Positions 2,372-21,065 of a stretch of DNA of 32,000 bases are shown here, piece after piece. Source of the stretch: Candidatus Nanopusillus sp. (GTDB taxonomy: Archaea; Nanobdellota; Nanobdellia; Nanobdellales; Nanobdellaceae); assembly GCA_028275885.1 (NCBI GenBank), contig JAPWTW010000004.1, positions 30,001 through 62,000 on the forward strand, written 5' to 3'. The first letter of the stretch is position 1. The number at the start of each line of letters is the position of its first letter. The notes below the pieces were generated by a model. It made no database searches. It had not been told where the DNA came from and worked only from the letters and a program-made list of their open reading frames with translations. The position numbers and the translations under genes are program-made.

Positions 2372-5300
2372 ATGAAAAAGATATATTTATTATCTTTTCT
2401 TTTGTTTTCATTATATTCAATTTTTTCTCAAGGGTATAATATATTGCATTCAGAATATTTATATAAACCAGTAACATTTTTAAGTATGAATTTATCGAAT
2501 AATAATTTATCTGTAGGTCAAACATTATATTATAATGTTTATATAAATTATAGAGATATTTATTATATATCAAATGCATCATTGGTAATACAAATAATAC
2601 AAAAAAATGATAATAACAATATTTATCCATTCCAATTTACATCAAATAACCAAGTATATGAATATGTTATAAAAAATATATATTTACAACCAGGAGAATC
2701 TTTAAATATACCTTTAAATTATACAATTCCAGATAATTTGCCTTCCGGATATTATTATGTTGTTGCATATTTATATACACCTTTAAGTGAAATAAATGGT
2801 TTACCATTTATATATTATCCAGGAGTATATCAAGAATTCTATATATATAATCCAAATAATGTTCCAGAAATTTATATTACAAAAGATCATACATATTTAA
2901 GTTCTTCTGCTTTATATACATGGGGTAGTGTATTATCATCATCAGGATATTATTATTCTTCATTAAATGGACCCTCTGGATATGGTGTTTCAAATTATAT
3001 TAATTTAACAGTTGGTGTATATTCAAGTATAAATACAAATGCTACATTAAATATTTTAATATCTCCATGGGATGATATTTTATATAATTCAATATATAAT
3101 TATGCTGAAAATGTACAATTAAATGAGGGATATAATATAATAAATATTCCATATATAAATGTTGCGACATTAAATCCAAATGCTTATTCATTAAAAATAA
3201 GTTTATTATATAATAATCAGACAGAATCAATATATAGATTAAGATTTATTGTTTTAGGTCCAACAACAAGATTGAATGGTGTTTATTTACAAGGTAATGG
3301 AAATTTAACATTTATAGTATCTCCATCTCCAGATCATTATACATATCCAATTACTCCAAATGTGGTAGCAGAAGTTTATTCAAATACATTAGGATTTAAA
3401 TATGATATACAATTGGGAAATATAAGTTGGAATAGTACACAATTTACTTATGTAAATTTGCAATTACCATTAAATTCTACTAAATTTGATCTATGTATAA
3501 ACCTATATTCAAATAATAATTTGGATTATGCATATTGTACATATTATATTATAAATCAATCAAATACTTATGGAATTCCATTAAGTAGTTTAATTTATGT
3601 AAATTATACAAATAATTATTTCTATATATGTTCAAATATTTCTGGAATATTAAATATAGGATATAATTCTGAATCAAACATAATATATACTGCAAGTATA
3701 AATAACAATTGCGTAAACTATACATTAGGTAGTGGAGTTTATTATATTTCCTTCTATTCACCTCAATATTCAAATCAATGGGTAATAGATAACACAGTAA
3801 TGTATATTCCATATAATATAAGTATAAACCAAACTCAACCAATAAATAATGTACAAAACAATTATAATTATCCAAATTATTATTTAATAATATTAATAAT
3901 TTTTGCTGCAATAATATTATTTATGTTATTGAGAAGAAAAAAATTATTTATCTTTGCATTAGTTTTATTACCACTTTTATTTAATATACATTCTCAGGAA
4001 CTATATCTAAGTTCTAGCCAAATATGTACACCTTTAGATTCATTAAATATAACAACGCAAGGATTTAATGGATCTGTAACAGTTTCTTATAAGTTTTATA
4101 ATTCATCAAATATTTCACAAATTTTCGCAAGTGGTAATTATAGTTATTTAGGAAATAATATATCTATTTATAATTATACAGTATACTTTAATAATTTACC
4201 ATTAAATTTGTCAAATAATATAAATTCTACAATAATAGATTATAATATAACCGTTCAGAATTGTACATTAATTGGTAAAAATCTCCCATTGTTATCTTGT
4301 GATCAATATAATTATAATGGATCAATATATTTAAATTATCCATATTATTTTAAATATTATGCAAATCCAGTATATCAAGGATCAAATAATGCAGGACAAA
4401 TAATTCCAGGTTGTCCATCTTCAAATAATTTATTAAATAATACATACTTTAATTTTACTTTAGTTTTACCAAATGGAGCAAGTGTAGTTACTAGAACAAA
4501 TTGTCCTGGATCTGGAGATCCAGATTGGGGTCAGAACTTATGTGATCTAAATATAAGTAGTTATGATATCAACGCAGGAAACTATACATCTTATGGAGAA
4601 TATTATTATTATAATATTTCATTTAATCAATCATTTATTGACAATCCATTACAAGTATTAGTAGCTAATTCTGGAGAATTTACTACCCAATCATGTTCTC
4701 ATGCATGGACGATAACTAGTGTTAGTTCAAATCCTTTATCTATAAATTTCTTATATTATGGACCATATTCAGGAACATATTATACATATTATAATGGAAT
4801 ATATGTTTTAGCACAAAATACTTCTGTAAGATTTAATGTAGGTAGTGGATATAATATTTTGTGCAGTGATGGTGTCACAAGTACTTCTATACCTTCTGTT
4901 GCTGCTTGGTTATATAGTTCAAATCAATATTATAATCCAAGCTCTTTCCAGTATTTACAGGGTATATCAAATTTACCATTCAATTTCACACAATACGGTA
5001 TAAGTAGAAATATTGTTTATAATATATATCCAAATAAAGGATTATTAATATCAAAAAATTTCCCATCTGGAGATTCTTACTTTACTTTATATAATTTTAG
5101 TGTAAATAATGCTGGTTATTATGTAATATATCAGGATTATATAAAAACAATATGTGATACTCCAGCAAATTATATATGTGATGCAAATGGAAATTTGTGT
5201 AATATTAGTTATATAGTAGGACAGGCACAAGGATGGTTACCAATATCTCCAGAACCAGGATATTATTTATTAGTAATAAATCCAAATGCTACTGTACATT

Positions 5301-6640
5301 TACAAAATTTAACATACTATCCATATATATATAATGTAAATCCGGGTGTCGCAATTTATATCGGTAATATATCTAATGTTGGAATTGGGAATCTTACAAT
5401 AATTATAAACCAAACACTTCCAGTTAAATCAATGAGCTTCTTATTACAACAGCAACAAAATTCACCACTATATATTTATTTCCCAACAAATTTATGTCCA
5501 CATTATGATTGTACAATAAATTATAGTGTAACATATCAAAATGCATATGGACTGACAGTTTATCCTTCTGTAACATATTATGGATATGTAGATATCAAAT
5601 GGGATACATTAAATATATATACTAATCCATCATTAACACAAATAACATATGGACAACCCTCATATATAACATTAGCAGTACAAAATACTGGGCCAGTACC
5701 TGCCGAGAATATATCTGTGCAAAATATATACTATAATTCAAATTGTATACAAGTATTAAATACTGGAGGTCAAATAAATTCATTGAATACAGGCGAAACT
5801 GGTTATTTAAATATAGAAATTAATATAATAAATCTATATTGTTCTCCACAAGATTATAATATAACATTTACAATTTATGGATGGAATACATATATATATA
5901 ATTATTCAATAATATTGCCAATAAGTTATATAATCTCTCCACCAAATGGGGCACAATTACAATCAATAACAACATTTAATATAGTAGATAATAATGCACA
6001 AACATGTTATATAATATTTAATGGAGCTCAATTCCCTAGAAATTGTAATTCAAATTTTGTGTATCAACAATATATGTGTGCAGGATCATTATGTAATACC
6101 CAAATTCAATCAATAAATAATTATGCAGAATTCTATGAAAATTATGTGTATTATAATTATTTAACGAATCAATCATCAATAATAGGAATAGCAGTTGTAT
6201 CAAATGTAATAAGTTTATATGTTGGACAAGAATATAAATATCCAGTCTTGATAAAAAATTTAGTACCAACAAATATTCAATGTTCTCTAGTACCAATTCC
6301 ATCAACTATAAATGATAAAGCAATTGTTACTAATTATAGTATAAATGGAATAAATAGTAATGAATTTACTATAAGTCCTTATGGATCTGCAGAATTGGAT
6401 ATAAATATTCTAGGAGCTTCTAGTGGTATAAGTAGTTTATTATATGGTGTAATATGTAATTCTACATATGGTTCTTCATCATTTAGTACCCAAGTTCCAA
6501 TATATGTATTTGGACCAAATAATTTAATAGCAAACTATACCAAATCTCAAATAATAGTATCTGAAAGAATATCTCCAACAGATTTAATTGGAATTGGAGG
6601 TTTAATAATAGTATTACTTGCTTTATTTAATATAATCTAA
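2372..6640 (+). CDS. Giant bipartite surface protein (S-layer/adhesin-like), two ectodomains joined by a TM hairpin
   Basis: 1422-codon ORF. N-terminal signal peptide MKKIYLLSFLLFSLYSIFSQG. Internal TM + RRKK + second signal-peptide-like segment near aa 503-540. C-terminal TM anchor LIGIGGLIIVLLALFNII. Dozens of N-x-S/T sequons. Segments resembling beta-sandwich adhesion (CARDB-like) domains, e.g. ITLAVQNTGPVPAENISVQN. No enzyme motifs seen. Confidence 0.8.
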   Translation: MKKIYLLSFLLFSLYSIFSQGYNILHSEYLYKPVTFLSMNLSNNNLSVGQTLYYNVYINYRDIYYISNASLVIQIIQKNDNNNIYPFQFTSNNQVYEYVIKNIYLQPGESLNIPLNYTIPDNLPSGYYYVVAYLYTPLSEINGLPFIYYPGVYQEFYIYNPNNVPEIYITKDHTYLSSSALYTWGSVLSSSGYYYSSLNGPSGYGVSNYINLTVGVYSSINTNATLNILISPWDDILYNSIYNYAENVQLNEGYNIINIPYINVATLNPNAYSLKISLLYNNQTESIYRLRFIVLGPTTRLNGVYLQGNGNLTFIVSPSPDHYTYPITPNVVAEVYSNTLGFKYDIQLGNISWNSTQFTYVNLQLPLNSTKFDLCINLYSNNNLDYAYCTYYIINQSNTYGIPLSSLIYVNYTNNYFYICSNISGILNIGYNSESNIIYTASINNNCVNYTLGSGVYYISFYSPQYSNQWVIDNTVMYIPYNISINQTQPINNVQNNYNYPNYYLIILIIFAAIILFMLLRRKKLFIFALVLLPLLFNIHSQELYLSSSQICTPLDSLNITTQGFNGSVTVSYKFYNSSNISQIFASGNYSYLGNNISIYNYTVYFNNLPLNLSNNINSTIIDYNITVQNCTLIGKNLPLLSCDQYNYNGSIYLNYPYYFKYYANPVYQGSNNAGQIIPGCPSSNNLLNNTYFNFTLVLPNGASVVTRTNCPGSGDPDWGQNLCDLNISSYDINAGNYTSYGEYYYYNISFNQSFIDNPLQVLVANSGEFTTQSCSHAWTITSVSSNPLSINFLYYGPYSGTYYTYYNGIYVLAQNTSVRFNVGSGYNILCSDGVTSTSIPSVAAWLYSSNQYYNPSSFQYLQGISNLPFNFTQYGISRNIVYNIYPNKGLLISKNFPSGDSYFTLYNFSVNNAGYYVIYQDYIKTICDTPANYICDANGNLCNISYIVGQAQGWLPISPEPGYYLLVINPNATVHLQNLTYYPYIYNVNPGVAIYIGNISNVGIGNLTIIINQTLPVKSMSFLLQQQQNSPLYIYFPTNLCPHYDCTINYSVTYQNAYGLTVYPSVTYYGYVDIKWDTLNIYTNPSLTQITYGQPSYITLAVQNTGPVPAENISVQNIYYNSNCIQVLNTGGQINSLNTGETGYLNIEINIINLYCSPQDYNITFTIYGWNTYIYNYSIILPISYIISPPNGAQLQSITTFNIVDNNAQTCYIIFNGAQFPRNCNSNFVYQQYMCAGSLCNTQIQSINNYAEFYENYVYYNYLTNQSSIIGIAVVSNVISLYVGQEYKYPVLIKNLVPTNIQCSLVPIPSTINDKAIVTNYSINGINSNEFTISPYGSAELDINILGASSGISSLLYGVICNSTYGSSSFSTQVPIYVFGPNNLIANYTKSQIIVSERISPTDLIGIGGLIIVLLALFNII

Positions 6641-8870: not shown

Positions 8871-9707
8871 ATGTTTGCACATGCTCAGGGTGAATATGAA
8901 AAATCAAAATGGATAATAGTAGGAATTCCATCAGAAATTGGTAGTTTATCTCATATAAAAAATTATATTGAAGGACCCGAATCCATTAGGGATGCATCTT
9001 ACAGAATATTTTCTCCAATATTTGGAGAAATAAATATGAAAGATATATATGATTATGGCGATATAGATTTGGAAGATATAAAAGATCTGGATAAATTATA
9101 TGAAAAAATATATAATGAAATTAAAAAAATATATAGAAAGGATAAAAAATATATATTTTTAGGAGGAGATCATTCAATAACATATCCAATATTAAAAATT
9201 GTTAAAGAAAATTGGGAAGATTTTTATTTATTGTATTTTGATGCCCATCCAGATATTCATCCTGATCCATATCCAAATTATCAAAGTTTTATTTATCATT
9301 TAATAAAGGAAAATTATATTGAACCTGAAAAAATTATTTATATTGGTATATCTAATTTATCGTTTGAAGAAAAAAATATAATAAAGGAGTGGGGGATAAG
9401 ATATTACAACCTTTTGGATGTTTGGGATAATATAAAAGAAATTTCAAAGGAGATATCAAATATATTAGAAAATAAAAATTTGTATATTTCAGTTGATATA
9501 GATGTATTTGATACAGGATGTGGACATTGGTTAGAAGGCATTGGAATTAGACCATATCATTATTTTAAGATTATAAAAGAATTAAGAAATATCAATTTAA
9601 TTGGTTTTGATTTAGTAGAATTATTTTCAAATGAAGTATGTGATAATTTGGCTGCAAAAATTGTTATTGAATCAATAGCAATCTTTAATAAATCTATGCA
9701 ATCATGA
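8871..9707 (+). CDS. Arginase-fold ureohydrolase (agmatinase-like), divergent
   Basis: Metal-binding motifs of the arginase/agmatinase family are present: GGDHSITYP, FDAHPD, SVDIDVFD. The segment after the last motif (TGCGHWLEGIGIRP) differs from the usual DPAFAPGTGTPEPGG-type loop, so the substrate is uncertain. Confidence 0.75.
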   Translation: MFAHAQGEYEKSKWIIVGIPSEIGSLSHIKNYIEGPESIRDASYRIFSPIFGEINMKDIYDYGDIDLEDIKDLDKLYEKIYNEIKKIYRKDKKYIFLGGDHSITYPILKIVKENWEDFYLLYFDAHPDIHPDPYPNYQSFIYHLIKENYIEPEKIIYIGISNLSFEEKNIIKEWGIRYYNLLDVWDNIKEISKEISNILENKNLYISVDIDVFDTGCGHWLEGIGIRPYHYFKIIKELRNINLIGFDLVELFSNEVCDNLAAKIVIESIAIFNKSMQS

Positions 9708-10341
9708 AATGTGTTTGATTAATTCTTTTTACATATACTGTTACAAGTTGATAAAATGTAATATTATTTACTGAATAACATGGTATGTAATTACATATAA
9801 TATTTCCATTTGTATTTTCTGTACATATTATATTTCCAGATAAATTTGTTGGAAATAAAAATACAAAAGTTTGATTTGAAGTATTTTTATTACTCAAACA
9901 AAAACTATATAAGAAATAATAAAAATCTGAATAATAATTTTTACATATGGTTAACTTGATATAATCTAAAGAATAATATACTGAAATTGGATATGTATAT
10001 GTATTACAATTTCCATTAAAATTTATAATTCCAAAACTATAATTACCAATTTCTGCTCTAAATGTATAAGGAAATATTGTACAATTTGGAAGCATATTGT
10101 AATATGTTTGATTGAATTGCCTTATTTTTTCCATTGTTGTAAAGTATATTGGATAATTTGGATATCCTATACAATTTGGAGAAAATAGGTTGTATATTAT
10201 TTCTTGTTGATATGAAAAAGAAGTTTGTTCTTTATAATTAGTTAAATTAATGCTAGAAAAAATTGCTAATAAAAGTATCATTCCAACTAAAAATAAAACG
10301 GTTAATATTGTTATAAATACTATGGAAAATTGTTCTTTCAT
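9694..10341 (-). CDS. Cluster protein 12: N-terminally anchored Cys-containing ectoprotein, unknown family
   Basis: 215 codons. N-terminus MKEQFSIVFITILTVLFLVGMILLLAIF (charged/Q head plus one hydrophobic helix). 8 Cys. Many N-x-S/T sequons. Last gene of the co-directional cluster. Confidence 0.75.
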   Translation of the reverse strand: MKEQFSIVFITILTVLFLVGMILLLAIFSSINLTNYKEQTSFSYQQEIIYNLFSPNCIGYPNYPIYFTTMEKIRQFNQTYYNMLPNCTIFPYTFRAEIGNYSFGIINFNGNCNTYTYPISVYYSLDYIKLTICKNYYSDFYYFLYSFCLSNKNTSNQTFVFLFPTNLSGNIICTENTNGNIICNYIPCYSVNNITFYQLVTVYVKRINQTHFMIA

Positions 10342-10349
10342 CTTTTATA

Positions 10350-11585
10350 TTAGAGATAATCTTTTATACATTCCTCTGGGAATGTTATTGTTTCTGGGCA
10401 TGTTGGGTTGTTAGGACATTGCCCTGGTAAACATACTGGACATTCTTCTCCACCAATTATACACATATAGCATTCAACTGGGATTGAATAATAATATGGG
10501 AATGTAAATATTATTTTTGAATCTTCTCTACTTATGCTTACATCACTACATCCATTTATTGAGGAACATGAATATTTTTGATCTTGTAATGTACAACTTT
10601 TCGATATCGCTGTCTTATTTGTTTCATTGTATACTCCAACACATTTATATATACAATTTAGATAATACTCGTTTGTTACATTTTCGTAAAAAACTATAGA
10701 AGTAATAATTATAGATTGCGGATATGTATTTCCGTTATAATATACATTATATCTATTGTCAGAACATTTTAATATTACTCTACAAGCAATTGCTTTAGGA
10801 TATAAACATATTTTACATAATGGAATATCCACACACTTATATGGAATTATTGTTTCGTTACATTTAATATCTGGGTTATTTGAAAATTGTTCAAATCTCC
10901 TTGCACAGTTATCAGTTGTAACATTATTATATAATGTATTTACACAATCTTGGAAAGAACATTCTGGAAATTCTTCTAAAGAAAATTGATATGCTAGATT
11001 ATACAAATAAAATGCTGGATTGTTTGTTATATTTGATGTAGATGCATAGGGAATTATTGAACCAGAAGAAGGTCCAGTAATATTTATGTATACCCCCTGA
11101 ACATAAACAGGAAAGTTATAATTATACTTTCCGGAATATATATCATCACATGTTCCTAGAATACCAGCTCGATAATTATTTGAAAAATTGAAAGATATAT
11201 TATATGGATAATAATATTTATATGCAGACAAATATTGTTCTCCATAGCTTATTAAGCTTGTAAATCCAGAAGTTAGTAAATTATTATAATATTGAATTGC
11301 ATTTTCACATGGTTGTGGTAATATACACTGAGGAGGAAAAGAAGCCCAGTTTTCTTTTCCCCAACCACTTGTTCCTGCTACATAAGATTTTGCATAACCT
11401 TCCTGTGTTAGTGCTGTTTGTAAATATCCTAAAAGGTAGTTTGATAAAGTAGATAAAGATGTAAATCTACCAAAAACAACATTCTGATTATAATTATATG
11501 TTAATGCATAAAAAGATAGAAGAATTATTAATATAGAAACTGTCAAAAATAGAACTATATAAATACTTTCTGTTTGATTTCTCAT
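10350..11585 (-). CDS. Cluster protein 11: N-terminally anchored, highly Cys-rich ectoprotein, unknown family
   Basis: 411 codons. N-terminus MRNQTESIYIVLFLTVSILIILLSFYAL. 24 Cys, with a dense C-terminal knot ECYMCIIGGEECPVCLPGQCPNNPTCPETITFPEEC. 4-nt overlap with the upstream gene. Confidence 0.8.
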   Translation of the reverse strand: MRNQTESIYIVLFLTVSILIILLSFYALTYNYNQNVVFGRFTSLSTLSNYLLGYLQTALTQEGYAKSYVAGTSGWGKENWASFPPQCILPQPCENAIQYYNNLLTSGFTSLISYGEQYLSAYKYYYPYNISFNFSNNYRAGILGTCDDIYSGKYNYNFPVYVQGVYINITGPSSGSIIPYASTSNITNNPAFYLYNLAYQFSLEEFPECSFQDCVNTLYNNVTTDNCARRFEQFSNNPDIKCNETIIPYKCVDIPLCKICLYPKAIACRVILKCSDNRYNVYYNGNTYPQSIIITSIVFYENVTNEYYLNCIYKCVGVYNETNKTAISKSCTLQDQKYSCSSINGCSDVSISREDSKIIFTFPYYYSIPVECYMCIIGGEECPVCLPGQCPNNPTCPETITFPEECIKDYL

Positions 11586-12787
11586 ACTTTTAATTTAATA
11601 TGAAGGTATATAAGTGTTAATATAATCATTGTTACTATCAATCCATGTATTATACCGAGTATTTTCATTATATTTGGTATAAATAATATACTTAATGGAG
11701 GACCTCCATATACTGCAAATTCTAGCAATTCTCCAATTATAACTTGTATTATAAGTAATATTCCAATTGTAATACCAATGGCTTTTTTAATTGGTTTTTT
11801 AACATTACTAAATAGTTTATGATGTATTCCTATGAAGAAAAATATCATAGCCATAAGATATCTTGTATGTAGAGCATAAGAAGTAAAATCTTTATTTGAT
11901 GTAAATAATGCACCCAAAAATATTATCAAGACCATAGTAAATAGTAAGAAATAATTTGTGAAATGATCATTTTTCATGCTCTTATAAATTAAAAAATAAA
12001 TAATAAATTCATATATGGATAAAAATATAAGAGCCTTATATACGGTAATCTGGTATTTTACAATTAAACTCTCTGAAGCTAGATTACTATAAAATGATAA
12101 CCCATATATAGCTATAACAATTTGTAATATTATAATAAAAAATATCGATAAAAATATATACTTTTTATATTTATAAATTTCTGATAATTTTTTGAATATT
12201 TTTGTTCTTACTATAAGTATTTCATTGCCATTAAAATATACAATCAGAAATAGAAATATAGCAAATACAATAAACAAAGTTGAATATAATGTTTTGAAAG
12301 TATAAATATTTGATAATGCAAAGTTAATGACTGAACCGACTATAGGTCCTGTTGCTACTTCTAAATCTATTGTTATAACGTTGATTACCAATTCAATGAA
12401 AAATAGTATTATAAATAAAACTAAAGAAAGTACATAAAATATCAAAGATTTTTTTGAAATATAAAAGTTATTTTCAAATAAATAATATCCTAGAGCAAAT
12501 ACTATAAAGTAAAATATCCAATAATTTATTGAAAGACCAAGTGATAAACGTACTAATAAAGGCCAATTTTGGTAATAGAGAGTTCCAAAAATTATAAATG
12601 GTATAAGTAAAAATGCCGACTTATATATCAAAGAAGTATTCTTTGAATTTTTTAATATAAAAGATAATAGAAATAAATATATTATACCAAAGATGATTAC
12701 ATTTATATTAAATTTACTATCAAAAGTAAAAAATAAGAATATTAGTAAATATAAAAGAAATAAAATTTTATCTTGTTTTTTTACCAT
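11582..12787 (-). CDS. Cluster protein 10: polytopic integral membrane protein (about 10-12 TM), Cys-free, unknown family
   Basis: 401 codons, almost entirely hydrophobic helices with short loops. Zero Cys. Overlaps both neighbours (7 nt upstream, 4 nt downstream). Confidence 0.8.
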   Translation of the reverse strand: MVKKQDKILFLLYLLIFLFFTFDSKFNINVIIFGIIYLFLLSFILKNSKNTSLIYKSAFLLIPFIIFGTLYYQNWPLLVRLSLGLSINYWIFYFIVFALGYYLFENNFYISKKSLIFYVLSLVLFIILFFIELVINVITIDLEVATGPIVGSVINFALSNIYTFKTLYSTLFIVFAIFLFLIVYFNGNEILIVRTKIFKKLSEIYKYKKYIFLSIFFIIILQIVIAIYGLSFYSNLASESLIVKYQITVYKALIFLSIYEFIIYFLIYKSMKNDHFTNYFLLFTMVLIIFLGALFTSNKDFTSYALHTRYLMAMIFFFIGIHHKLFSNVKKPIKKAIGITIGILLIIQVIIGELLEFAVYGGPPLSILFIPNIMKILGIIHGLIVTMIILTLIYLHIKLKV

Positions 12788-14409
12788 ACTGTTAATTTAG
12801 AGACAAGATATCCGCCTAAAAAAGGCATATCTACTGGCAAATATATATAATATACATATATGTTTGTGTTTGGTGGTATTGGATATCCCAAACTTACACT
12901 ATTTTGACTACCTTGATAAATATAAGCGTTTAATTCTTCTTTGTTTCCTGTATCAGTAATACAATATGCTCTTGCCATTGCAACACCGTTTGATCCAGCA
13001 TGTGGGTCATAATATACTGCAGAAATTATAAATTGATAGGTATTTGGGTCTCTATTATTTATTACCCATTTAGTAATATTAAATCTATAAAATCCTTGAG
13101 CATATGTATTAATACCACCTAAGTAAACTAAAGGGCATTCCTTTCCAACAACAATTCCGTTTATATTTTGTATATCATTATATACACCAGTTGGACACCT
13201 TATTGTTTTTTCATTTATTTTATATTCACATAAAGGATCTGCTGCTAAAAATACATAATCTGGTTGTCCATTTTTATTTAAATAAGAAATATATAGAGCC
13301 ACTGTCTCATGCCATGGATAATCTATAAATACTTGTTGGCAATGTGGTGGTATATTTACTACACCTCTGTAAAAAGATCCTACAACCAATACTTGACTAC
13401 CTCCGCAAAGGGAATTACCTGTATATCTTGTACCAAATTCTTGTTGACATGCTGCATTTAAATATTCTCTTGGGATTATAAAATCTGCTAGTCTATTTAT
13501 GTCAGTAGCAGTTTTATAAACAGGAGGACCTTGATAATATTGAGGTTCAGATGTTAGATATTGATTATTAGTTGCCGGACAAGATCTTGTATATATGCAT
13601 AAGAATCCAGAAAAGAAATTTGGTAAGTCAGATACTTGTTGAGCTAGTACACCAACTACACCTAAATAATTTGGAAATAAATGCCATTCACTATTGGGAC
13701 AATATACAGAAGCTTCAGTAAAATTATGATTTGGAAATATTCTTGATAAAGGTTCACAATATCTTAGTTGTATGGCCATTGCTTGTGATCCTTGTGGATA
13801 AAATGATTGTAAGCCCCATGCATTTGTTGATAATGTTTGATGGAAAGGTGCTGTTGCATTGACCCATCCAGCCCCATATATAGTCAGGCTTACTGGTATA
13901 TCAATATTCTGTGTATAATTATTTGTAAAGAAATACGTATAATCCCATTCATACCATTGTTTGCCATTTTGATCTGGTGGAGGTCTCATAGAACAAGGAT
14001 CCCAATTATTTATATTGCCAGCCACTACAAACATCTGGACAATCCATCCGGTTATTGGTGGTACAAAATATATTGTAAGGTTCCATCTATTTCCATATAT
14101 ACTATTAAAATAATTTGTTATAGTCTGTGATATATTTGTACATATATTTTGATTTATGCAGTATGTATCGTTTCCAGAAGATGAAAAATAAGATAATAAA
14201 AATGCATAGGATAAGTTAACTTTATTATCATTAATATATGATAATAAAACAATACTATTCTGGGTTGTTAGAGTATATTGATTTTCTACATTATAAGTTT
14301 GCATTGTTTTTTGATTATAGTTACTTGATATTAAGGTATATAATAGAACTAATAATGATATTATTGAAATTATAATAACAAATGTTAGAGTATTTATTTG
14401 ATTTTTCAT
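12781..14409 (-). CDS. Cluster protein 9: N-terminally anchored large ectoprotein, unknown family
   Basis: 542 codons. N-terminus MKNQINTLTFVIIISIISLLVLLYTLI. 14 Cys. No Walker or other catalytic motif recognised. Confidence 0.8.
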   Translation of the reverse strand: MKNQINTLTFVIIISIISLLVLLYTLISSNYNQKTMQTYNVENQYTLTTQNSIVLLSYINDNKVNLSYAFLLSYFSSSGNDTYCINQNICTNISQTITNYFNSIYGNRWNLTIYFVPPITGWIVQMFVVAGNINNWDPCSMRPPPDQNGKQWYEWDYTYFFTNNYTQNIDIPVSLTIYGAGWVNATAPFHQTLSTNAWGLQSFYPQGSQAMAIQLRYCEPLSRIFPNHNFTEASVYCPNSEWHLFPNYLGVVGVLAQQVSDLPNFFSGFLCIYTRSCPATNNQYLTSEPQYYQGPPVYKTATDINRLADFIIPREYLNAACQQEFGTRYTGNSLCGGSQVLVVGSFYRGVVNIPPHCQQVFIDYPWHETVALYISYLNKNGQPDYVFLAADPLCEYKINEKTIRCPTGVYNDIQNINGIVVGKECPLVYLGGINTYAQGFYRFNITKWVINNRDPNTYQFIISAVYYDPHAGSNGVAMARAYCITDTGNKEELNAYIYQGSQNSVSLGYPIPPNTNIYVYYIYLPVDMPFLGGYLVSKLTVW

Positions 14410-15251
14410 TTTAGATAATATAATAGTATAAATAGGCCTATTATTACTATAATTATAACTATTGCCGTTGGTAAAATCAAATTAACATTATTGATGTTAT
14501 TAGTACTTACATTTGGTTGTGGATAAATTAATTGTTGGTTATTATTTGTAAGATTATTTGTTAAGTTTATTTCAGTTTGATTTATACATTCAAATACACC
14601 GGTACAAGATATATAAACAATATTTGGTGGTGGACATTTCTGTAGAAATTCTTGATACAATTGATTTAATGAATAATTGTATGGGCATCTAAACCAGTTA
14701 CCTTGAAAAGATAAATTCTCTGGACAATAACCACAGCTGTAAAAATTACGGTAATATAATAATAATGACTGATAAGATTCATTACCTGCTAAGTAGGAAA
14801 GTGGTATATATGGGTGATCAAAACATGGGTAAATTTGATTAGAACATGGGGGGTAATACCAAGGCGTATTTGGACAATTTAATAGATTATCACATAATGT
14901 TTGATTTTCTGTTGGTATAGTTAGGTCTTGATATGCCGATGGAGGAATTAATATATATGGACTAACTAATGTACCATTTTGGTATTTACAATAACTGCTA
15001 TTTACATATATTAATCCGTAATGTGCACAAAGAGAATATTCTGGAGGTACATTATTTTCAAAATATTGTAAAGCGTCAAAATATGTATTATTTATAATAC
15101 AATAGGAGCCTGTATCATTTGCGTAATAGGTTCCTCCACCATATTCACAGTAAACTGCTATTGGATTTTTCATAGAGAATATATTATATAGTAAATTTAT
15201 GAAGATAGTTATAAGAAATGCTAATAAATTTCTATTTTGCGAGAGTAACAT
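14406..15251 (-). CDS. Cluster protein 8: secreted Cys-rich type-I membrane protein with DUF333-like N-terminal motif
   Basis: Signal peptide MLLSQNRNLLAFLITIFINLLYNIFS, then KNPIAVYCEYGGGTYYANDTGSYC (resembles the NPA-x-x-YC-x(3)-GG...C motif of DUF333). 14 Cys. C-terminal TM anchor LILPTAIVIIIVIIGLFILLYYLK. Confidence 0.75.
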   Translation of the reverse strand: MLLSQNRNLLAFLITIFINLLYNIFSMKNPIAVYCEYGGGTYYANDTGSYCIINNTYFDALQYFENNVPPEYSLCAHYGLIYVNSSYCKYQNGTLVSPYILIPPSAYQDLTIPTENQTLCDNLLNCPNTPWYYPPCSNQIYPCFDHPYIPLSYLAGNESYQSLLLYYRNFYSCGYCPENLSFQGNWFRCPYNYSLNQLYQEFLQKCPPPNIVYISCTGVFECINQTEINLTNNLTNNNQQLIYPQPNVSTNNINNVNLILPTAIVIIIVIIGLFILLYYLK

Positions 15252-16689
15252 TTTGTATTGCTACAATTGAAAACTTAGGAAATGATATGCCATAAGGTGA
15301 CTGATCAAATGGTACATATATATATCCATCTTGCATCCAATAAACTCCTCCACAAGATGATCCTATTGCGGCACTGCAAGCTTGATAATCTGAATAATAT
15401 CTATAGCATTCACTTTTACTAAGAGTTATTCCACCTATTCTACCATCTGAAGTATAAATTAAACATTCTGTTACACGCCCCCATGAATTTGCAAATATCC
15501 AACATTTTGGAGTTCCATATACTTCTTGACATAGTTGGGATTGTGTATCATATCCAACCAGCAACATAGCATGACCTGTAGTTCTTACAAAATATAAAGG
15601 ATATTTATTTGGATTAGATCCGCCAATTCCAGCCATATAGCCACTAACTGTTAATGGTCCATAGCATAACAAATATTGAATTATTTCTAGACTTGATAAA
15701 GACTTCCCTTCATGAACTAATTCCATAACATTATGTGAATAATATAATGGTGAAGTGGGCCCATTATAGTCAAAATTGCATACATCTCCAGGATAACTAA
15801 TATCATCTGTTCTACACATTGCTAAAGTAGAACTATAATGTCTTCGTTCAGGATCTGCTGGTATACCATATTGAGATGCATATAGTATACCTATATATGG
15901 CCAACCGCCGTTACAACCCATATTATTTTCACAATATATTGTAGTATTCGGATAACCCTTATTACATTTTATTGCTATATATGCAGCGGATAATGTTAAT
16001 CCTTCGTTAGGTTTATTATTTCTTATCATATAAATTGAGGCAATTTGATTTGAAGATGCAAATGCCCAACAGTCTCCACAAACTCCTTGATCACCCACTG
16101 GAGGTAAGTAATTATTTCCATTTACATCACCCCAGAAAAATCTTGATTGTTCAGTATATTTAACTAAACATCTACTATTTGGGTCAATAGTATTATTTAT
16201 TTGGTTAGTCTGATTATTTTGATTAGTTTCTGGACTTATGATTATAATAGTTCCATTAGGCAAATATTGATTAAATATGAAAATTGTATCATTAAAATCT
16301 GCAGAAATAAAAATAGTATTATTTGTACTAACCAAATATATATAATTATTTGGATATAAAAAACTTACATTTTGACCATTATTGTATAAAATTACAGATT
16401 TATTTTGAAAATTAATCGTATAATTATAATTATTATATTGGATTATTAATTTGTTGTCTCTTGAATATAATATAATTCCACTTGGTATATCAACTTTTAT
16501 ATAATGTGTACCTTGCATGTTGTTTATTGTATCCTGTAAATTTTGTAAATTATTGACAAAATTCTCAAATATATATCTTTCTTGTTCCCTTTTAACATTT
16601 GTAGAATATTGATAATAAATTAAGAAAGATAATGATACAATTAATAATATTATTGCTACTGAGAGCAAATTTAACTGATTCTTTTTCAT
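15232..16689 (-). CDS. Cluster protein 7: membrane-anchored papain-family (C1) cysteine peptidase
   Basis: N-terminal anchor MKKNQLNLLSVAIILLIVSLSFLIYY, an N/I/Y-rich beta-like middle region, then a C1 domain with all catalytic elements: Q-G-V-C-G-D-C-W-A-F (Gln oxyanion and Cys207, codon 16069-16071), TGHAMLLVGYD (His), FANSWG (Asn-Ser-Trp). Confidence 0.9.
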   Translation of the reverse strand: MKKNQLNLLSVAIILLIVSLSFLIYYQYSTNVKREQERYIFENFVNNLQNLQDTINNMQGTHYIKVDIPSGIILYSRDNKLIIQYNNYNYTINFQNKSVILYNNGQNVSFLYPNNYIYLVSTNNTIFISADFNDTIFIFNQYLPNGTIIIISPETNQNNQTNQINNTIDPNSRCLVKYTEQSRFFWGDVNGNNYLPPVGDQGVCGDCWAFASSNQIASIYMIRNNKPNEGLTLSAAYIAIKCNKGYPNTTIYCENNMGCNGGWPYIGILYASQYGIPADPERRHYSSTLAMCRTDDISYPGDVCNFDYNGPTSPLYYSHNVMELVHEGKSLSSLEIIQYLLCYGPLTVSGYMAGIGGSNPNKYPLYFVRTTGHAMLLVGYDTQSQLCQEVYGTPKCWIFANSWGRVTECLIYTSDGRIGGITLSKSECYRYYSDYQACSAAIGSSCGGVYWMQDGYIYVPFDQSPYGISFPKFSIVAIQNVTLAK

Positions 16690-16724: not shown

Positions 16725-17165
16725 TTAACTTGGATTTTCTATATAAATTGTTACATCTGTTGGAGATGTTTTTTTAACAAGCAAAGGTATTTTTTGATTA
16801 GGACTTCCACGTGATAATTCATAAAATAATCCGGAAGTATAATATTGAATCATATTATTTGTTGTATTTATTATTACATTGCAAGGTACTGTATAATTAT
16901 AATATTTGTCATATATGTAACAGCTTAATAAATTACCATTACTATATATATAATTTAGATATTTGTTTATTTCAATAGTAATATGAAATTCTGTTCCATT
17001 ATTGGAATAGCACGCTCTTTCAACTGTTGCATATAAATTTTGACATGAAGATATATTTTTATATAATAATTGAGTCTCATTATTTATGCCTGTAAATTTA
17101 AAATATAAATATAAAGATAAACCAAAAGCAATAATTGCTATAATTATCCAAAACCACTTTTCCAT
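16725..17165 (-). CDS. Cluster protein 6: small N-terminally anchored protein (pilin-like topology)
   Basis: 146 codons. N-terminus MEKWFWIIIAIIAFGLSLYLYF. 4 Cys. Beta-rich N/Y/I domain. 2-nt gap from the upstream gene. Confidence 0.7.
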   Translation of the reverse strand: MEKWFWIIIAIIAFGLSLYLYFKFTGINNETQLLYKNISSCQNLYATVERACYSNNGTEFHITIEINKYLNYIYSNGNLLSCYIYDKYYNYTVPCNVIINTTNNMIQYYTSGLFYELSRGSPNQKIPLLVKKTSPTDVTIYIENPS

Positions 17166-17167
17166 TT

Positions 17168-17581
17168 TTATCCTTGAATATTAATATAAACATAATTTCC
17201 TGCCGAATAAATTAATATATACTTTCCAGGATTTATATTATAATTACAATTTTGCATTGCAACATTTGGATCTATACTCTTTACTCCATTTATTAAATCT
17301 TCACATGTAAATGATGGCCCCTGATAATGAATCAAGTAACAGAGACCTTGAGCTTTTTTATAATAACATGATACCACATTCATTGCAACAGTTGTCATTG
17401 AACTTACATTTGTTTCTACTACAGTCTGTGTAGTATTGTATTTGGGCATTATGTTATTTATGTATGAAGATATATTTTCTCTTAATACAAATATTATTCC
17501 TGCAATTGTTAATGTAACAATTATTCCAATAAAGATTAAAAAAGTATAATTAATTGGGAGCTCTTGAATTCTCATTGCCAT
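17168..17581 (-). CDS. Cluster protein 5: small N-terminally anchored protein (pilin-like topology)
   Basis: 137 codons. N-terminus MAMRIQELPINYTFLIFIGIIVTLTIAGIIFVL. 4 Cys. C-terminal GKYILIYSAGNYVYINI motif shared with proteins 3 and 4. Confidence 0.7.
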   Translation of the reverse strand: MAMRIQELPINYTFLIFIGIIVTLTIAGIIFVLRENISSYINNIMPKYNTTQTVVETNVSSMTTVAMNVVSCYYKKAQGLCYLIHYQGPSFTCEDLINGVKSIDPNVAMQNCNYNINPGKYILIYSAGNYVYINIQG

Positions 17582-18051
17582 ATTATAATATAGCTATTGT
17601 TGTATATTATAAATATGCTGTTGTATGGATATATATTTCCTCCACTATTATTTAAATGGAATATAATTTTATTTGGATTAAATTTAGTATAATTTTGTAC
17701 ATATTGTATTAATGTTGCTGAATTTAGGATAATATTCTTATTTATATAAACATCATAACATATATTAAATAATTTATTTGTATTTACATTATTATTATAA
17801 CAATTTAATATTAATCCTACTATACTTAAATAAATTGTATCAATACTCTCATTTGTATATATTATATTTATTGCAGAAGGATAATATTTTTCACATGATG
17901 GAGAAAAACCACCTTGTGATATTAATGTTTGACAATAATATGCTTGAGAATTGCTAAAGAATTTTGTATATATAATACTCAATATAACTGCGACAGATAT
18001 TATTGCTATTATTATTATAAATATTGTATCTATTGTTATATCATTCTTCAT
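17572..18051 (-). CDS. Cluster protein 4: small N-terminally anchored protein (pilin-like topology)
   Basis: 159 codons. N-terminus MKNDITIDTIFIIIIAIISVAVILSIIY. 4 Cys. C-terminal NSIFIIYNNSYIIIW motif. 4-nt overlap upstream. Confidence 0.7.
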   Translation of the reverse strand: MKNDITIDTIFIIIIAIISVAVILSIIYTKFFSNSQAYYCQTLISQGGFSPSCEKYYPSAINIIYTNESIDTIYLSIVGLILNCYNNNVNTNKLFNICYDVYINKNIILNSATLIQYVQNYTKFNPNKIIFHLNNSGGNIYPYNSIFIIYNNSYIIIWQ

Positions 18052-18332
18052 ATATAATTAATACTTCCATTATAAATATATATAATTCTATATCCAGCAG
18101 GTATTGTTATTCCATTTATTGTACAATTTTCATTAAGAAATACTTTAATATCAATTATTTCTTGAAAACTTTTATTATATAAGTTTTTTAGTTGTTGGCA
18201 ATTAATTGTTTGTATACTATTTTCACTTAAATTATTTTTTACATTATAAATATAATAAAAAGAAAATAGGCCAGCAGCTATAATTAATATAAAAGTTATT
18301 ATAATCCAATATATTGTTTGTTGTAATTTCAT
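18048..18332 (-). CDS. Cluster protein 3: small N-terminally anchored protein (pilin-like topology)
   Basis: 94 codons. N-terminus MKLQQTIYWIIITFILIIAAGLFSFYY. 2 Cys. C-terminal GYRIIYIYNGSINYI motif. 4-nt overlap with the platform gene. Confidence 0.65.
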   Translation of the reverse strand: MKLQQTIYWIIITFILIIAAGLFSFYYIYNVKNNLSENSIQTINCQQLKNLYNKSFQEIIDIKVFLNENCTINGITIPAGYRIIYIYNGSINYI

Positions 18333-20299
18333 AATTGTATATTTGTTGGTAAATATGGGCCAAATATTGTATATACTATTAATATTCCTATTATTGAAAA
18401 TATAACATAAAATATTGTTCCAGACAATAAATTTCTACCTATATAATATGATGTCATTGTATTGTCAAATCCATATTTTATTCCAGCACTCATATATGAA
18501 GTTATTATTACATATTCTATAAAAAATGTACCAATTATTGCTTCAAAAAATGTTGGCGGTATTAAATTATATAGATTAAATGTATTTACAACAAAATTGA
18601 ATATATTTGTTCCTCCACCAAGACCAAAAGATTGATCTATTAATTGAAAGAAATATGCAAGTGCAAAAAGCATTGAAACTATACCATTATTAAAAATTGT
18701 AACTATTGCAGAAATTAATGGTACAAGATTTTTTGATGTTATATCTATTAATCCAATTATTTCATTTAATATTTTTCTTACGCTATATCTTATGTTATTT
18801 ACATTTTCTAAGTTTGTTGATATATTATATGCGATCTTTGATAAAACTTCAGGACCTTTTGATACAGAAGTAACTAAAAGTTGCATAGATTCTCTTACTA
18901 ATTTTGATGGATATAAATTTAATGAACCAATTTTTGAATCAAATATAGAAGTACTTAAATCATAACCCCTTCTTAAATTATATAATGTTGTTTTTAGAAA
19001 ATTTTCCATAATTCCAGATGATTTTATTATTTTATAATTATAATATGTTTTTTCAATTACTATTTCAAATGGATAGCCATCTTCTAATAATGATGCAAAT
19101 TCATATATAACAATTGGAAACTCATTTTCTATTTCTTCAATTTGATATATTTTTTTAACTTTTTGAAAAGATGTTAAATAATAATAAGATCCTATACTTA
19201 AACCCAACCCTAAAGGTAATGTTAAAGTTAAAACAGAATATATTAGCGCTCTATCTTGATAAACTATATTTAAATATTCACTTAAAAATCCCTGTGGAAT
19301 AAATGTAATTCTTATAGCTAAAGAAACTAAATGATATATTCCCAGAACTGCAATCGATCCCAATATTATTGAAATTATTATTGCTGGAACTTCTTTATTT
19401 CCAATTTTAAATTTTCCAGGTTTTGGTAAATCTCTTGCTAAAGATAAATCTGGAACAGAAAATGCAAAAGGATTTTTTGATAGGAAGTTTTGAATTATTA
19501 AAAATGTAATAACTGGTAAAATTATTATATATGAAAATGCTATGAAATAGAAACTTACAGTATTTAATAAAAATGTAGATATTATTGGTAATAGCAATAA
19601 ACTAACTATTGGCATCATTACTAAAAAAGATACTATAACTGTTGCAGGTTCTTTTAAGGCATCTACATATAATTGGGATTTTTCTAATGATTTTTTTAAT
19701 ACCCATCCCAATATTCTATCTAATAATTTATTTATATCATCAATAGATGTTTTATATTTAATATTTACAATATGTGTCATTGCATATGCAAAATCTGGAC
19801 TTAAATAAAACCATCGTCTTTGATAGTATTCTAATGCAGATTCTATATCTTTAAATTTATTTGTTTCTAAATTATATAATAATGATCTAAAGTCTGTTGC
19901 AATATAACCTCTCATATAATATGCTACATATTTTATTCCATTTTCTAAATTAGGATTCCTTTTTAGATATAATGATAAATATAATATTATCCATATAATT
20001 TCTGATGTTACTTGAATTCTAATAACCTGTGTATAAAATATTGGATAATATGCAAAATAGAATGATAATATTAATAAAGATATTAATAAAGAAAAAGCAA
20101 ATTGAAAGCTAACAAAACTTAAAATAAAATATATAACTATAGAAAATAATATTAGAGTTACTACAGAAGAAAATATATTATCAGGATTTGTATTTAATCT
20201 ATTTAACCATAAATGAAAGGTATATTTTTTATATATTGGATCAGGAGCTTTTAGTTTTATTAAATTAAAATTATTATAAAAATATTCAAAAAAACTCAT
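18329..20299 (-). CDS. Cluster protein 2: polytopic membrane protein, FlaJ/TadC/PilC-like (T2SS-F type) platform candidate
   Basis: 656 codons. Two helical soluble segments, each followed by TM helices, are arranged like the duplicated T2SS-F domain. First segment: NLENGIKYVAYYMRGYIATDFRSLLYNLETNKFKDIESALEYY. Second segment: EFPIVIYEFASLLEDGYPFEIVIEKT...LRRGYDLSTSIFDS...YPSKLVRESMQLLVTSVSKGPEVLSKIAYNI. Zero Cys. Assigned by eye, not by profile search. Confidence 0.5.
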   Translation of the reverse strand: MSFFEYFYNNFNLIKLKAPDPIYKKYTFHLWLNRLNTNPDNIFSSVVTLILFSIVIYFILSFVSFQFAFSLLISLLILSFYFAYYPIFYTQVIRIQVTSEIIWIILYLSLYLKRNPNLENGIKYVAYYMRGYIATDFRSLLYNLETNKFKDIESALEYYQRRWFYLSPDFAYAMTHIVNIKYKTSIDDINKLLDRILGWVLKKSLEKSQLYVDALKEPATVIVSFLVMMPIVSLLLLPIISTFLLNTVSFYFIAFSYIIILPVITFLIIQNFLSKNPFAFSVPDLSLARDLPKPGKFKIGNKEVPAIIISIILGSIAVLGIYHLVSLAIRITFIPQGFLSEYLNIVYQDRALIYSVLTLTLPLGLGLSIGSYYYLTSFQKVKKIYQIEEIENEFPIVIYEFASLLEDGYPFEIVIEKTYYNYKIIKSSGIMENFLKTTLYNLRRGYDLSTSIFDSKIGSLNLYPSKLVRESMQLLVTSVSKGPEVLSKIAYNISTNLENVNNIRYSVRKILNEIIGLIDITSKNLVPLISAIVTIFNNGIVSMLFALAYFFQLIDQSFGLGGGTNIFNFVVNTFNLYNLIPPTFFEAIIGTFFIEYVIITSYMSAGIKYGFDNTMTSYYIGRNLLSGTIFYVIFSIIGILIVYTIFGPYLPTNIQL

Positions 20300-20303
20300 T
20301 ACA

Positions 20304-21065
20304 TTAGCTTGTTACACTTGGTATATTATTTAACTGGGAATATGGTACTTGTAATAAGAATTGACATAATGGCATTCCATTGACATTATTATTTATACCT
20401 AATGCTGTACAATTTCCAGTTACTACTAATATTCCATTACTAACTGTTAAATTCAAATTACATCCATTTGCAGTATTATAATAGTTAATTATCTTTAATA
20501 ATGCACCAAATACTTGGTTTGTAATCCATGTTGGCAATTGTGCAGAACATTGTGCTGGACCTGGATATAATATTTGAGATGGAGAGGAAATAATAATATT
20601 TGCTTGTCCTGATTTTATATCAAATGATGTAGCAGGAGAATAATTTCCAAATACATAACTTGTTGCTTGTGCTGGACTATAATATAGATCATTAATATAA
20701 TACTGACATTCTATATACATACAGTTAAGAGGCGTTATAGTATATCCTTCATGTTGACATTGACTAGAAGGGCCACCATATAATTGTAATATTACACTAC
20801 ATGGAACAGCATTTGAACAGATATAATATCCAGGACTTACTTGTACAAGTCCATTTCCTATATTTTCATATTTTGTACAAAATGTTGTTGGGGTTGAACA
20901 ATAGCTTGAACAATCTGAAACTGCCTGTTGTATTTGCGTATTTGATATTGTACTAATTTTTGATGATTGTTGTTGGAATAATTTAATTACAATAACTGCT
21001 ACTACTAACATTATTATTATTACAAATATTAACTGTACAGCTATATCTATACCTCTCCTTCTCAT
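20304..21065 (-). CDS. Cluster protein 1: pilin-like Cys-rich protein with class III-like signal peptide
   Basis: N-terminus MRRRG-IDIAVQLIFVIIIMLVVAVIVIKLF: a basic head ending in R-G followed by a long hydrophobic helix, as in archaeal type IV pilin-like precursors. 12 Cys. First gene of the cluster. Confidence 0.65.
   Translation of the reverse strand: MRRRGIDIAVQLIFVIIIMLVVAVIVIKLFQQQSSKISTISNTQIQQAVSDCSSYCSTPTTFCTKYENIGNGLVQVSPGYYICSNAVPCSVILQLYGGPSSQCQHEGYTITPLNCMYIECQYYINDLYYSPAQATSYVFGNYSPATSFDIKSGQANIIISSPSQILYPGPAQCSAQLPTWITNQVFGALLKIINYYNTANGCNLNLTVSNGILVVTGNCTALGINNNVNGMPLCQFLLQVPYSQLNNIPSVTS

Follow-up and report, generated by a model that had tools for sequence, protein, structure and literature searches.

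A papain-family peptidase on a pilin-like module in a TadC-linked gene array of Nanopusillus and its relatives

By what means might a nanoarchaeon act on the surface of the cell on which it lives? Attached as they are to another archaeon, Nanoarchaeota such as Nanopusillus acidilobi have to recognize its proteinaceous S-layer and pass it locally, and to our knowledge no effector for this passage is known. The question is raised anew by a gene for a papain-family (C1) peptidase in a stretch of 32,000 nucleotides (nt), here called the window, from Candidatus Nanopusillus sp. (assembly GCA_028275885.1, contig JAPWTW010000004.1, positions 30,001 to 62,000). An original prediction, made from the letters alone, had described its product as a membrane-anchored, surface-displayed peptidase embedded in a pilus-like operon. 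We hold it somewhat more probable than otherwise that the product of the gene is a cysteine endopeptidase of the papain fold, active and extracellular, which is built like a “modular pilin,” is encoded in a co-transcribed, TadC-linked array, and is presented outward. The parts of the gene and of its downstream partner are as follows, with lengths in amino acids (aa) and structure predictions by AlphaFold2 (AF2) and its confidence score pLDDT (predicted local distance difference test).

15232..16689, minus strand: peptidase gene, 485 aa, pilin-like carrier plus linker plus C1 peptidase (open reading frame [ORF], 41 homologues)
16675..16689, minus strand: leader MKKNQ, aa 1-5, short, basic, and class-III-like, with invariant Q5 (homologue alignment)
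16606..16674, minus strand: hydrophobic helix, aa 6-28, membrane anchor or alpha1-N of the pilin-like module (hydropathy, AF2)
16255..16605, minus strand: rest of the N-terminal module (N-module), aa 29-145, predicted as an amphipathic helix to aa 57, eight beta-strands, and a short helix (AF2)
16174..16254, minus strand: N/Q/G-rich variable linker, aa 146-172 (alignment, pLDDT <50)
15475..16173, minus strand: papain-family catalytic domain, aa 173-405 (PF00112, cathepsin C and papain PDB alignments)
16087-16089, minus strand: Gln201 codon (aligned to papain Gln19)
16078-16080, minus strand: codon of disulfide Cys204 (aligned to papain Cys22)
16069..16071, minus strand: catalytic Cys207 codon (aligned to papain Cys25, invariant)
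15571..15573, minus strand: catalytic His373 codon (aligned to the cathepsin C catalytic His, invariant)
15487..15489, minus strand: Asn401 codon, papain Asn175 equivalent (aligned to cathepsin C NSWG, invariant)
15481-15483, minus strand: Trp403 codon (papain Trp177 equivalent)
15235..15474, minus strand: C-terminal region, aa 406-485, a Cys-rich insertion and then the end GVYWMQDGY.YVPF (conservation)
14406..15251, minus strand: partner gene, 281 aa, signal-like N-terminal helix, DUF333-like region at aa 25-80, Cys-rich region, and C-terminal transmembrane (TM) segment with a basic end (hidden Markov model [HMM], TM segments)

Three lines of evidence bear on the catalytic domain. Pfam placed PF00112 (Peptidase_C1) at aa 193 to 405 (E 2.3e-18; 67.5 bits, cut-off 20.7), and the family was present in all 41 word-indexed homologues of the peptidase, which were full length (470 to 570 aa) and, where named, came from Candidatus Nanopusillus and Ca. 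Nanobsidianus stetteri. When solved structures were aligned by HMMER, DQGVCGDCWAF fell on NQGSCGSCWAF of papain (Q201, C204, and C207 on Gln19, Cys22, and Cys25) and GCNGGW on papain GCNGGY (C259 on Cys63), while TGHAMLLVGY fell on the catalytic-His segment of cathepsin C (TNHAVLLVGY) and FANSWG on the segment that carries its Asn and Trp (VKNSWG); the coordinates of the catalytic codons were checked directly on the sequence. In an alignment of 23 full-length homologues, C204, C207, H373, and N401 were invariant and Q201 and W403 were conserved in at least 90%. Because family score, structure alignments, and residue conservation agree, the match to the C1 family is no chance motif, and the 485-aa protein is confirmed, at the level of sequence, as carrying a genuine papain-family domain with a complete, conserved catalytic set. 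The original prediction had read this set correctly and had anticipated the PF00112 assignment. Retention of the catalytic residues also bears on whether the protein might have lost catalysis and serve as an adhesin, binding through its papain fold. Such a protein would be compatible with the divergence of P0038 and P0039 around the Gln19 and Trp177 positions and with orthologs that gave no proteomic signal; with Cys207, His373, and Asn401 invariant in 23/23 homologues and kept in the distant P0042, P0043, P0044, and P0048, we regard it as extremely improbable.

Two features at the edges of the domain set it apart. Between NSWG and the conserved end lies the Cys-rich insertion of ~40 aa (C409, C428, C438, and C446), variable in length among homologues, and its position adjoining the Asn/Trp loop suggests that it could shape the primed substrate sites. 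An exclusion domain of the cathepsin C type was considered, since dipeptidyl peptidase I (DPP1) was the best PDB match, and was rejected: the alignment begins only at aa 184, and PF08773, which is carried by the other hits P0125 and P0181, was not matched.

The relatives of the catalytic domain lead to its neighbor. The best C1 matches outside the family scored ~70 to 76 bits, whereas no solved eukaryotic enzyme exceeded 34 bits; a DUF333 domain stood N-terminal to C1 in 84 of the 142 best outside matches (confirmed by Pfam for five), and named proteins of this DUF333-C1 type included large surface proteins of “Nanoarchaeota archaeon” metagenome-assembled genomes. By these comparisons, the closest outside relatives are probably prokaryotic DUF333-C1 peptidases, some of them from DPANN archaea. 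Transfer from a eukaryote to an archaeon is disfavored as an origin by the outgroup scores, which are higher for the prokaryotic proteins (76 versus 34 bits), few of which could be given a taxon name, and the statement that C1 peptidases are mostly eukaryotic and uncommon in archaea overstated their rarity: the nearest prokaryotic relatives are numerous, and a public arCOG03611 label already covers the family. Pfam found no DUF333 domain within the 485-aa peptidase itself. Directly downstream, in a gene whose start overlaps the peptidase gene by 20 nt, aa 25 to 80 of the partner reached 24.8 bits with an HMM trained on 84 DUF333 domains, and orthologs of the partner scored 53.9 bits (L012 lineage) and 23.3 bits (N. 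acidilobi); Pfam alone scored the region below threshold. Because the closest outside relatives mostly fuse DUF333 to C1, the peptidase and its DUF333-like partner look like a split pair. We found no solved structure of DUF333 and no literature on it.

At its other end, the catalytic domain is preceded by a module of a different kind. All peptidase homologues have a short hydrophilic leader directly before ~20 hydrophobic residues; M1, K2, and Q5 were invariant, position 4 varied among N, Y, D, and G, and the N-terminal helix reached a Kyte-Doolittle hydropathy of 2.72 over aa 6 to 24. Similar N-termini occur in about nine neighboring products, in line with the earlier observation that MKKNQ and its hydrophobic helix form the same anchor as in the neighbors. 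The model of aa 1 to 150, built from 15 sequences that included distant ones, reached a mean pLDDT of 88.2 and a pTM (predicted template modeling score) of 0.71 and showed a continuous helix at aa 3 to 57, eight beta-strands, and a short helix. What had been described as a 150-aa N/I/Y-rich spacer is thus predicted with confidence to fold over aa 1 to 145, and only aa ~146 to 172 form a low-complexity linker, the length of which differs widely among homologues (alignment columns ~155 to 250). Of ten N-x-S/T sequons in the peptidase, eight lie within aa 89 to 165. Type IV pilins have been described as having a “lollipop” layout (PMC8179133), and the layout predicted for the N-module resembles it. 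The module also occurs as a stand-alone protein of 141 to 142 aa (P0046 and P0049).

The setting of the gene provides a second link to type IV filaments. The array consists of 12 genes on the minus strand, from 21065 down to 9694, with spacings of -20 to +35 nt. Besides the peptidase and partner genes, it contains the following.

20304..21065, minus strand: array gene 1, 253 aa, near-canonical class III signal M[KR][KR]R[GA]/IDMAVQ with cleavage at the slash (ortholog N-termini)
18329..20299, minus strand: 656-aa polytopic membrane protein, probable divergent TadC/FlaJ/GspF-type platform (PF00482 matches of homologues, arCOG01814)
16725..18332, minus strand: four small N-terminally anchored proteins of 94, 159, 137, and 146 aa (ORFs, TM segments)
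9694..14409, minus strand: distal genes for proteins of 542, 411, and 215 aa with M[KR]xQ leaders and for a 401-aa protein with 10 TM segments (ORFs, leaders, synteny)

Taken alone, the 656-aa protein had no match in Pfam, NCBIfam, or the PDB. Of its 19 aligned homologues, 10 matched PF00482 (T2SSF; best E 1.7e-9); the PDB matches of the alignment profile were to EpsF/GspF only and were weak (E 0.13), and the N. acidilobi ortholog, Nps_00520, is assigned to arCOG01814 in the published gene table. That arCOG is named “Pilus assembly protein TadC” and placed in subclade 4F in the supplement of Makarova et al. 2016 (PMC4858521). On this evidence from homologues, the 656-aa neighbor is most probably a divergent TadC/FlaJ platform protein. 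The class III signal of array gene 1 was present in all of its orthologs, and one JGI name reads “type II secretory pathway...”; no Pfam match was found for the 253-aa protein. Seven of the ten singly anchored array products begin with M-[K/R]-x(0-1)-x-Q followed by a hydrophobic helix, and in some array orthologs the Q is preceded by G (MKGQ, MKKGQ).

Conservation of the array was examined in a locus scan with one genome per GTDB species, which found nine loci, all from Nanopusillus, Nanobsidianus, or Nanopusillaceae; one of them lies in the complete genome of N. acidilobi 7A, which is in cultivation. Gene order was kept in 9/9 genome loci, between the RimK/DUF371 genes and the arginase gene, and it was the same in strain YN1 (AP031373.1) and in a more distant lineage, with a TadC of only 53% identity; the TadC-type gene was linked to the peptidase in every locus examined. 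A search of 1.84 billion cluster representatives returned only five proteins at E<=1e-30, plus the two stand-alone homologues of the N-module. Strain YN1 departs from the common arrangement. Its C1 domain is fused to a homologue of the 146-aa protein encoded upstream of the peptidase in the window, giving a 579-aa protein with intact catalytic motifs whose aa 1 to 142 are 59% identical to the window protein, while its N-module is a separate gene of 141 aa two positions downstream. As this swap of carriers shows, the C1 domain is a cargo able to sit on different small anchored carriers. The YN1 stretch (L010, AP031373.1, 13201-16741) reads, in order, a 146-aa-like carrier joined through an Ig-like, PS-rich linker to C1 (579 aa), a DUF333-like protein (283 aa), the N-module (141 aa), and a DUF333-like paralog (172 aa); a DUF333-like gene thus follows each carrier gene, the second paralog being the shorter.

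That the C1 domain is found on different carriers argues against the N-module as an obligatory prodomain in cis. It had been suggested that aa 30 to 170 might act as an inhibitory prodomain, and a module that inhibits or chaperones the enzyme in place of I29 would make the protein a membrane-tethered zymogen. The I29 propeptide marks only the cathepsin-L-like subgroup of C1A and not the C1 family as a whole. As the original prediction had noted, no I29-type propeptide is evident (no Pfam match at E<=1 in the 485-aa peptidase); the N-module occupies the propeptide position and, against L001, is more conserved than the catalytic domain (nonsynonymous divergence, dN, 0.024 versus 0.095). These points agree with a zymogen, and yet the YN1 catalytic domain has another N-terminal partner while its residues remain intact in P0043, the N-module there being a gene apart, and the module also exists alone in P0046 and P0049. 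Its predicted structure, a long helix and an eight-stranded sheet in a pilin-shaped, beta-rich fold, is unlike the helical I29. An I29/ERFNIN prodomain proper was rejected on the same fold, on the missing Pfam match, and on an N-module HMM score of only 6.7 bits to the I29-like repeats of P0184. We therefore consider an N-terminal prodomain very improbable.

A parallel arrangement came from outside the family. In P0062, a protein of 524 aa encoded at locus L014 of assembly GCA_017610385.1 (33% G+C), a canonical class III signal of the archaeal type (MRKG/IAILTE) stands at the N-terminus and a C1 domain (Pfam E 3.5e-32) at the C-terminus. The gene directly after it encodes 308 aa that share the architecture of the window partner: Sec signal, DUF333, Cys-rich region, and C-terminal TM segment. 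Judged by its sequences, L014 seems to encode several “modular pilins” and to come from an uncultivated lineage that is probably archaeal, and it makes the reading of a pilin-type carrier with C1 and a DUF333 partner considerably more credible. The parallel is architectural, because homology of the window N-module to the N-terminus of P0062 was not demonstrable; its similarity to the N-termini of P0062, P0097, and P0109 amounted to 7 to 10 bits and was confined to the hydrophobic helix. L014:3566-15253 also holds a row of ~9 proteins with canonical [K/R]G/ class III signals, among them an 883-aa protein with a von Willebrand factor A (vWA) domain and a 688-aa protein with a weak Peptidase_C25 match.

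Several results weigh against a pilin-borne, active enzyme. The residue before the invariant Q of the leader is N, Y, or D in most homologues and not the G, A, or S of prepilin-peptidase sites: it is N in the window (K-N-Q), G in P0012 alone, and either L or S in distant homologues. No pilin family appeared among the Pfam matches of 15 N-module sequences at E<=1, a PDB profile search with the N-module returned no pilin, and a Foldseek search of the N-module model against the PDB was negative; nor did any array neighbor match a pilin family in Pfam or NCBIfam. Membership of the N-module in the type IV pilin family is accordingly not established, and the module resembles that of a modular pilin by its layout. 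The 32,000-nt window contains no assembly ATPase and no prepilin peptidase; in N. acidilobi, VirB11-type ATPases are encoded elsewhere in the genome and the annotation table has no prepilin peptidase, an enzyme that is annotated in its host. Two nanoarchaea were reported to have no recognizable prepilin peptidase, and the cognate pilins of the subclade 4F ATPase could not be identified in nanoarchaea (Makarova 2016, PMC4858521). The co-culture proteomic table of N. acidilobi gives no value for the peptidase ortholog Nps_00495 or for the cluster Nps_00465-00525. Finally, the full-length AF2 model of the peptidase, with 23 closely related sequences as input, was poor (pLDDT 54), and its best Foldseek matches, to cathepsins B and K, were weak (E ~3e-3, TM-score ~0.3). 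In that model the whole L-lobe of the C1 domain (aa ~131 to 321) was left unfolded at pLDDT <50 despite the clear PF00112 match, a reminder of the divergence of this domain.

The case for a pilus-like system is thus carried by the platform protein, by the architecture of the N-termini, and by the predicted lollipop, and not by membership in a family. The operon had been called pilus-like from the start; the platform gives that description substance, while the neighbors are pilin-like by architecture and match no pilin family. The same evidence opens the way to a plainer protein: a nutritional ectopeptidase held by a type II signal anchor and a stalk, which would degrade peptides from the environment or released by the host for an organism unable to make amino acids, in an operon that would group surface proteins and form no filament. 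It would account for an N-module outside the known pilin families, for a leader that does not have the canonical G or A at position -1, and for a neighborhood with neither ATPase nor prepilin peptidase in an organism in which no prepilin peptidase is annotated; its nearest C1 relatives are, moreover, ordinary secreted multidomain proteins with Sec-type signals. What it leaves unaccounted for is the strict linkage of a TadC-type platform gene in every genome, the existence of the helix-plus-sheet carrier as a small stand-alone protein, the movement of C1 between two different small anchored carriers, and the canonical class III signals of the parallel locus. We judge it unlikely, although it is an alternative to be taken seriously, and continue to prefer a carrier of the modular-pilin type.

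Whichever anchor is assumed, composition points outward. The peptidase has 15 Cys (3.1%) and 2.1 sequons per 100 aa, within the range of all nonpolytopic array products (2.1 to 5.8% Cys and 1.2 to 4.3 sequons per 100 aa) and similar to the window's S-layer protein; the cytoplasmic proteins encoded in this stretch have 0 to 0.9% Cys. Together with topology, this composition supports an extracellular location, short of proof, and the surface display proposed at the outset fits it (15 Cys and 10 sequons, as in the S-layer protein and unlike the cytoplasmic proteins). The S-layer gene in question is an ORF of 1,422 aa (window 2372-6640, plus strand) that has no Pfam match and corresponds to the “S-layer domain” protein of N. 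acidilobi (Nps_00425, arCOG02079), rich in Cys and sequons; it is preceded by the gene for an archaeal LonB protease (485-2347, plus strand).

Evolutionary rates bear on what the enzyme might cleave. TadC was 92 to 95% identical across Nanopusillus, while the peptidase shared only 59 to 61% identity with its N. acidilobi counterpart. In comparisons with the two nearest genomes, the dN of the peptidase was 0.073 to 0.090, the highest in the array after gene 1, and its ratio of nonsynonymous to synonymous divergence (dN/dS) was 0.27 to 0.30. Within the protein, leader and hydrophobic helix were almost frozen (dN ~0 against L001), and the C-terminal region was fastest, with the highest dN/dS (~0.55). 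All pairwise dN/dS values were <1, another point against the preferred reading, and on these pairwise values positive selection was rejected. A maturation protease that trims or activates the co-encoded surface subunits or the symbiont's own S-layer would explain the strict co-inheritance with ~10 secreted or anchored proteins and suits an S-layer gene 8 kb away. Such an enzyme would hardly be among the fastest-evolving genes while several of its putative substrates are 91 to 98% conserved; leader cleavage would take place on the cytoplasmic face, out of reach of the C1 domain if the topology is as predicted, and flexible linker and carrier suggest outward presentation. We consider a maturation role improbable. 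The idea that the C1 domain might be the missing nanoarchaeal prepilin peptidase was rejected on the same topology, leader cleavage being cytoplasmic and the C1 domain lying after an N-in anchor. Array gene 1 showed the reverse of the peptidase pattern, with the highest dN against the two nearest genomes (0.118 to 0.122) and 0.080 against N. acidilobi, which suggests recombination or differing histories within the array.

We infer the extracellular location from topology and composition, and the enzymatic activity, filament incorporation, and substrate of the peptidase are likewise inferred; on these premises, the preferred reading can be set out as a sequence of steps. A protein made of a basic leader of 3 to 4 residues, the hydrophobic start of an alpha-helix of ~55 residues, a small glycosylated beta-sheet head, a flexible linker, and the catalytic domain would be co-transcribed, and probably translationally coupled, with the membrane-anchored DUF333-like partner. 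The carrier module would hold the enzyme in the membrane and, with an ATPase encoded elsewhere, could enter at or near the tip of a surface structure resembling a type IV filament. The protease would then be presented outside the symbiont S-layer, toward host surface proteins or the contact zone, and may be modulated or assisted by the DUF333 partner. Papain-family enzymes are commonly active at acidic pH. N. acidilobi has been grown at pH 3.6 and 82 C.

In a bolder version, the enzyme and its DUF333 partner would together be a split zymogen that a pilus deploys. As long as both remain in the symbiont membrane, the tethered DUF333 ectodomain would serve the C1 domain as a prodomain in trans (inhibitor or chaperone); extraction of the carrier into a filament by TadC would free the enzyme so that it is active only at the tip, at host contact, where it could open the host S-layer for a cytoplasmic bridge. 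In organisms with no recognizable A24 prepilin peptidase, the [K/R]-x-Q leaders would imply a new route of processing, or of nonprocessing, for subunits of type IV filaments. As a whole, this scheme is a long shot. In the leaders of ten array products, the Q is nearly invariant and the preceding residue variable. The 146-aa protein (16725-17165, minus strand) starts with MEKWFW, and its distant ortholog (L012:13105-13554) starts with MRNQVEKFLW; the window form thus begins about where a Q-ending leader would be removed, a hint that cleavage, if any, may follow Q.

The locus offers, across cultivated and uncultivated members, a candidate set for action on the host: a surface protease on a pilin-like carrier, apparently active to judge by its residues, a DUF333 partner, and a TadC-type platform, with the host cell surface as a plausible target. 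With both N. acidilobi and strain YN1 in culture, its predictions are open to direct test. The recurrent association of DUF333 with C1, fused in most close relatives and in adjacent genes in two distant archaeal lineages, is a first functional lead for DUF333, and the idea of the modular pilin would be extended to archaea and to a C1 enzyme module.

Comparison with known systems shows where the protein agrees with each and where it departs. With the C1A enzymes of MEROPS (papain, cathepsins L, K, and B, and dipeptidyl peptidase I) it shares PF00112, the aligned equivalents of Gln19, Cys25, His159, Asn175, and Trp177, and the Cys22-Cys63 pair; it differs in having neither I29 nor an exclusion domain, in its ~34 bits to the best solved structure, in the insertion of ~40 aa after NSWG, in its N-terminal membrane or pilin-like carrier, and in coming from an archaeal thermoacidophile. 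The prokaryotic DUF333-C1 peptidases, which are uncharacterized, go by names such as “C1A family cysteine protease” or “putative hemolysin,” and include giant DPANN surface proteins, have the closest C1 domains (<=76 bits) and share a DUF333-like domain at the locus. Here, in contrast, DUF333 sits on a separate, C-terminally anchored protein of the overlapping downstream gene, and the peptidase has a pilin-like N-terminus in place of a Sec signal and none of their C-terminal CARDB, cohesin, or beta-helix adhesion domains.

Bacterial modular type IV pilins, such as Streptococcus sanguinis PilB with its vWA module (PMC8179133), likewise combine a carrier (leader, alpha1, beta head) with a linker and a grafted module and are encoded with filament machinery, and a peptidase module is listed among their 264 architectures. 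The protein described here differs from them in being archaeal, in its C1 module, in a leader that departs from the canonical Gly, and in a carrier that shows no detectable sequence or Foldseek similarity to known pilins; its incorporation into a filament is proposed by analogy. Among archaeal type IV pilus loci, those of subclade 4F share the platform ortholog, arCOG01814, and surface peptidases of the papain-fold superfamily (transglutaminase family) have been linked to archaeal type IV pilus loci (Makarova, Koonin & Albers 2016, PMC4858521). The nanoarchaeal ATPase is encoded elsewhere, unlike in those loci, and the peptidase is of the C1 and not the transglutaminase-like type and is itself pilin-like. 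Bindosome proteins are substrate-binding proteins processed by PibD. Systems of the Sulfolobus bindosome type consist of nonpilin proteins with class III signal peptides (PMC4858521) and resemble the present case in using a pilin-type N-terminus to anchor or assemble functional proteins at the cell surface; here the cargo would be an enzyme, in an organism not known to have a prepilin peptidase.

The C1 annotation of this family is already public. The N. acidilobi ortholog Nps_00495 is listed in the published gene table as “Peptidase C1A subfamily” with one TM segment and arCOG03611, and a Nanobsidianus stetteri homologue carries the same label. A search of the available literature found no paper discussing this peptidase or arCOG03611, and the peptidase is not listed in the Jarett 2018 supplements. 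The arrangement of carrier, partner, and array therefore appears to be undescribed, and the new elements are the pilin-shaped carrier, the carrier swap in YN1, the split DUF333-C1 pair, the family-wide TadC-linked array, and the parallel locus with class III signals.

Beyond the array, the window (~25% G+C) carries genes for archaeal RpoH/B/A, S24e, LonB, a uracil-DNA glycosylase, and an arginase-family protein, and no tRNA genes. Within the array, the 401-aa protein with ~10 TM segments (11582-12787, minus strand) had no Pfam or NCBIfam match. Its residues H307-T-R309, H322, E353, E356, H381, and H396 were invariant in 11 orthologs down to 38% identity, and the four invariant membrane His suggest heme or metal binding, or catalysis.

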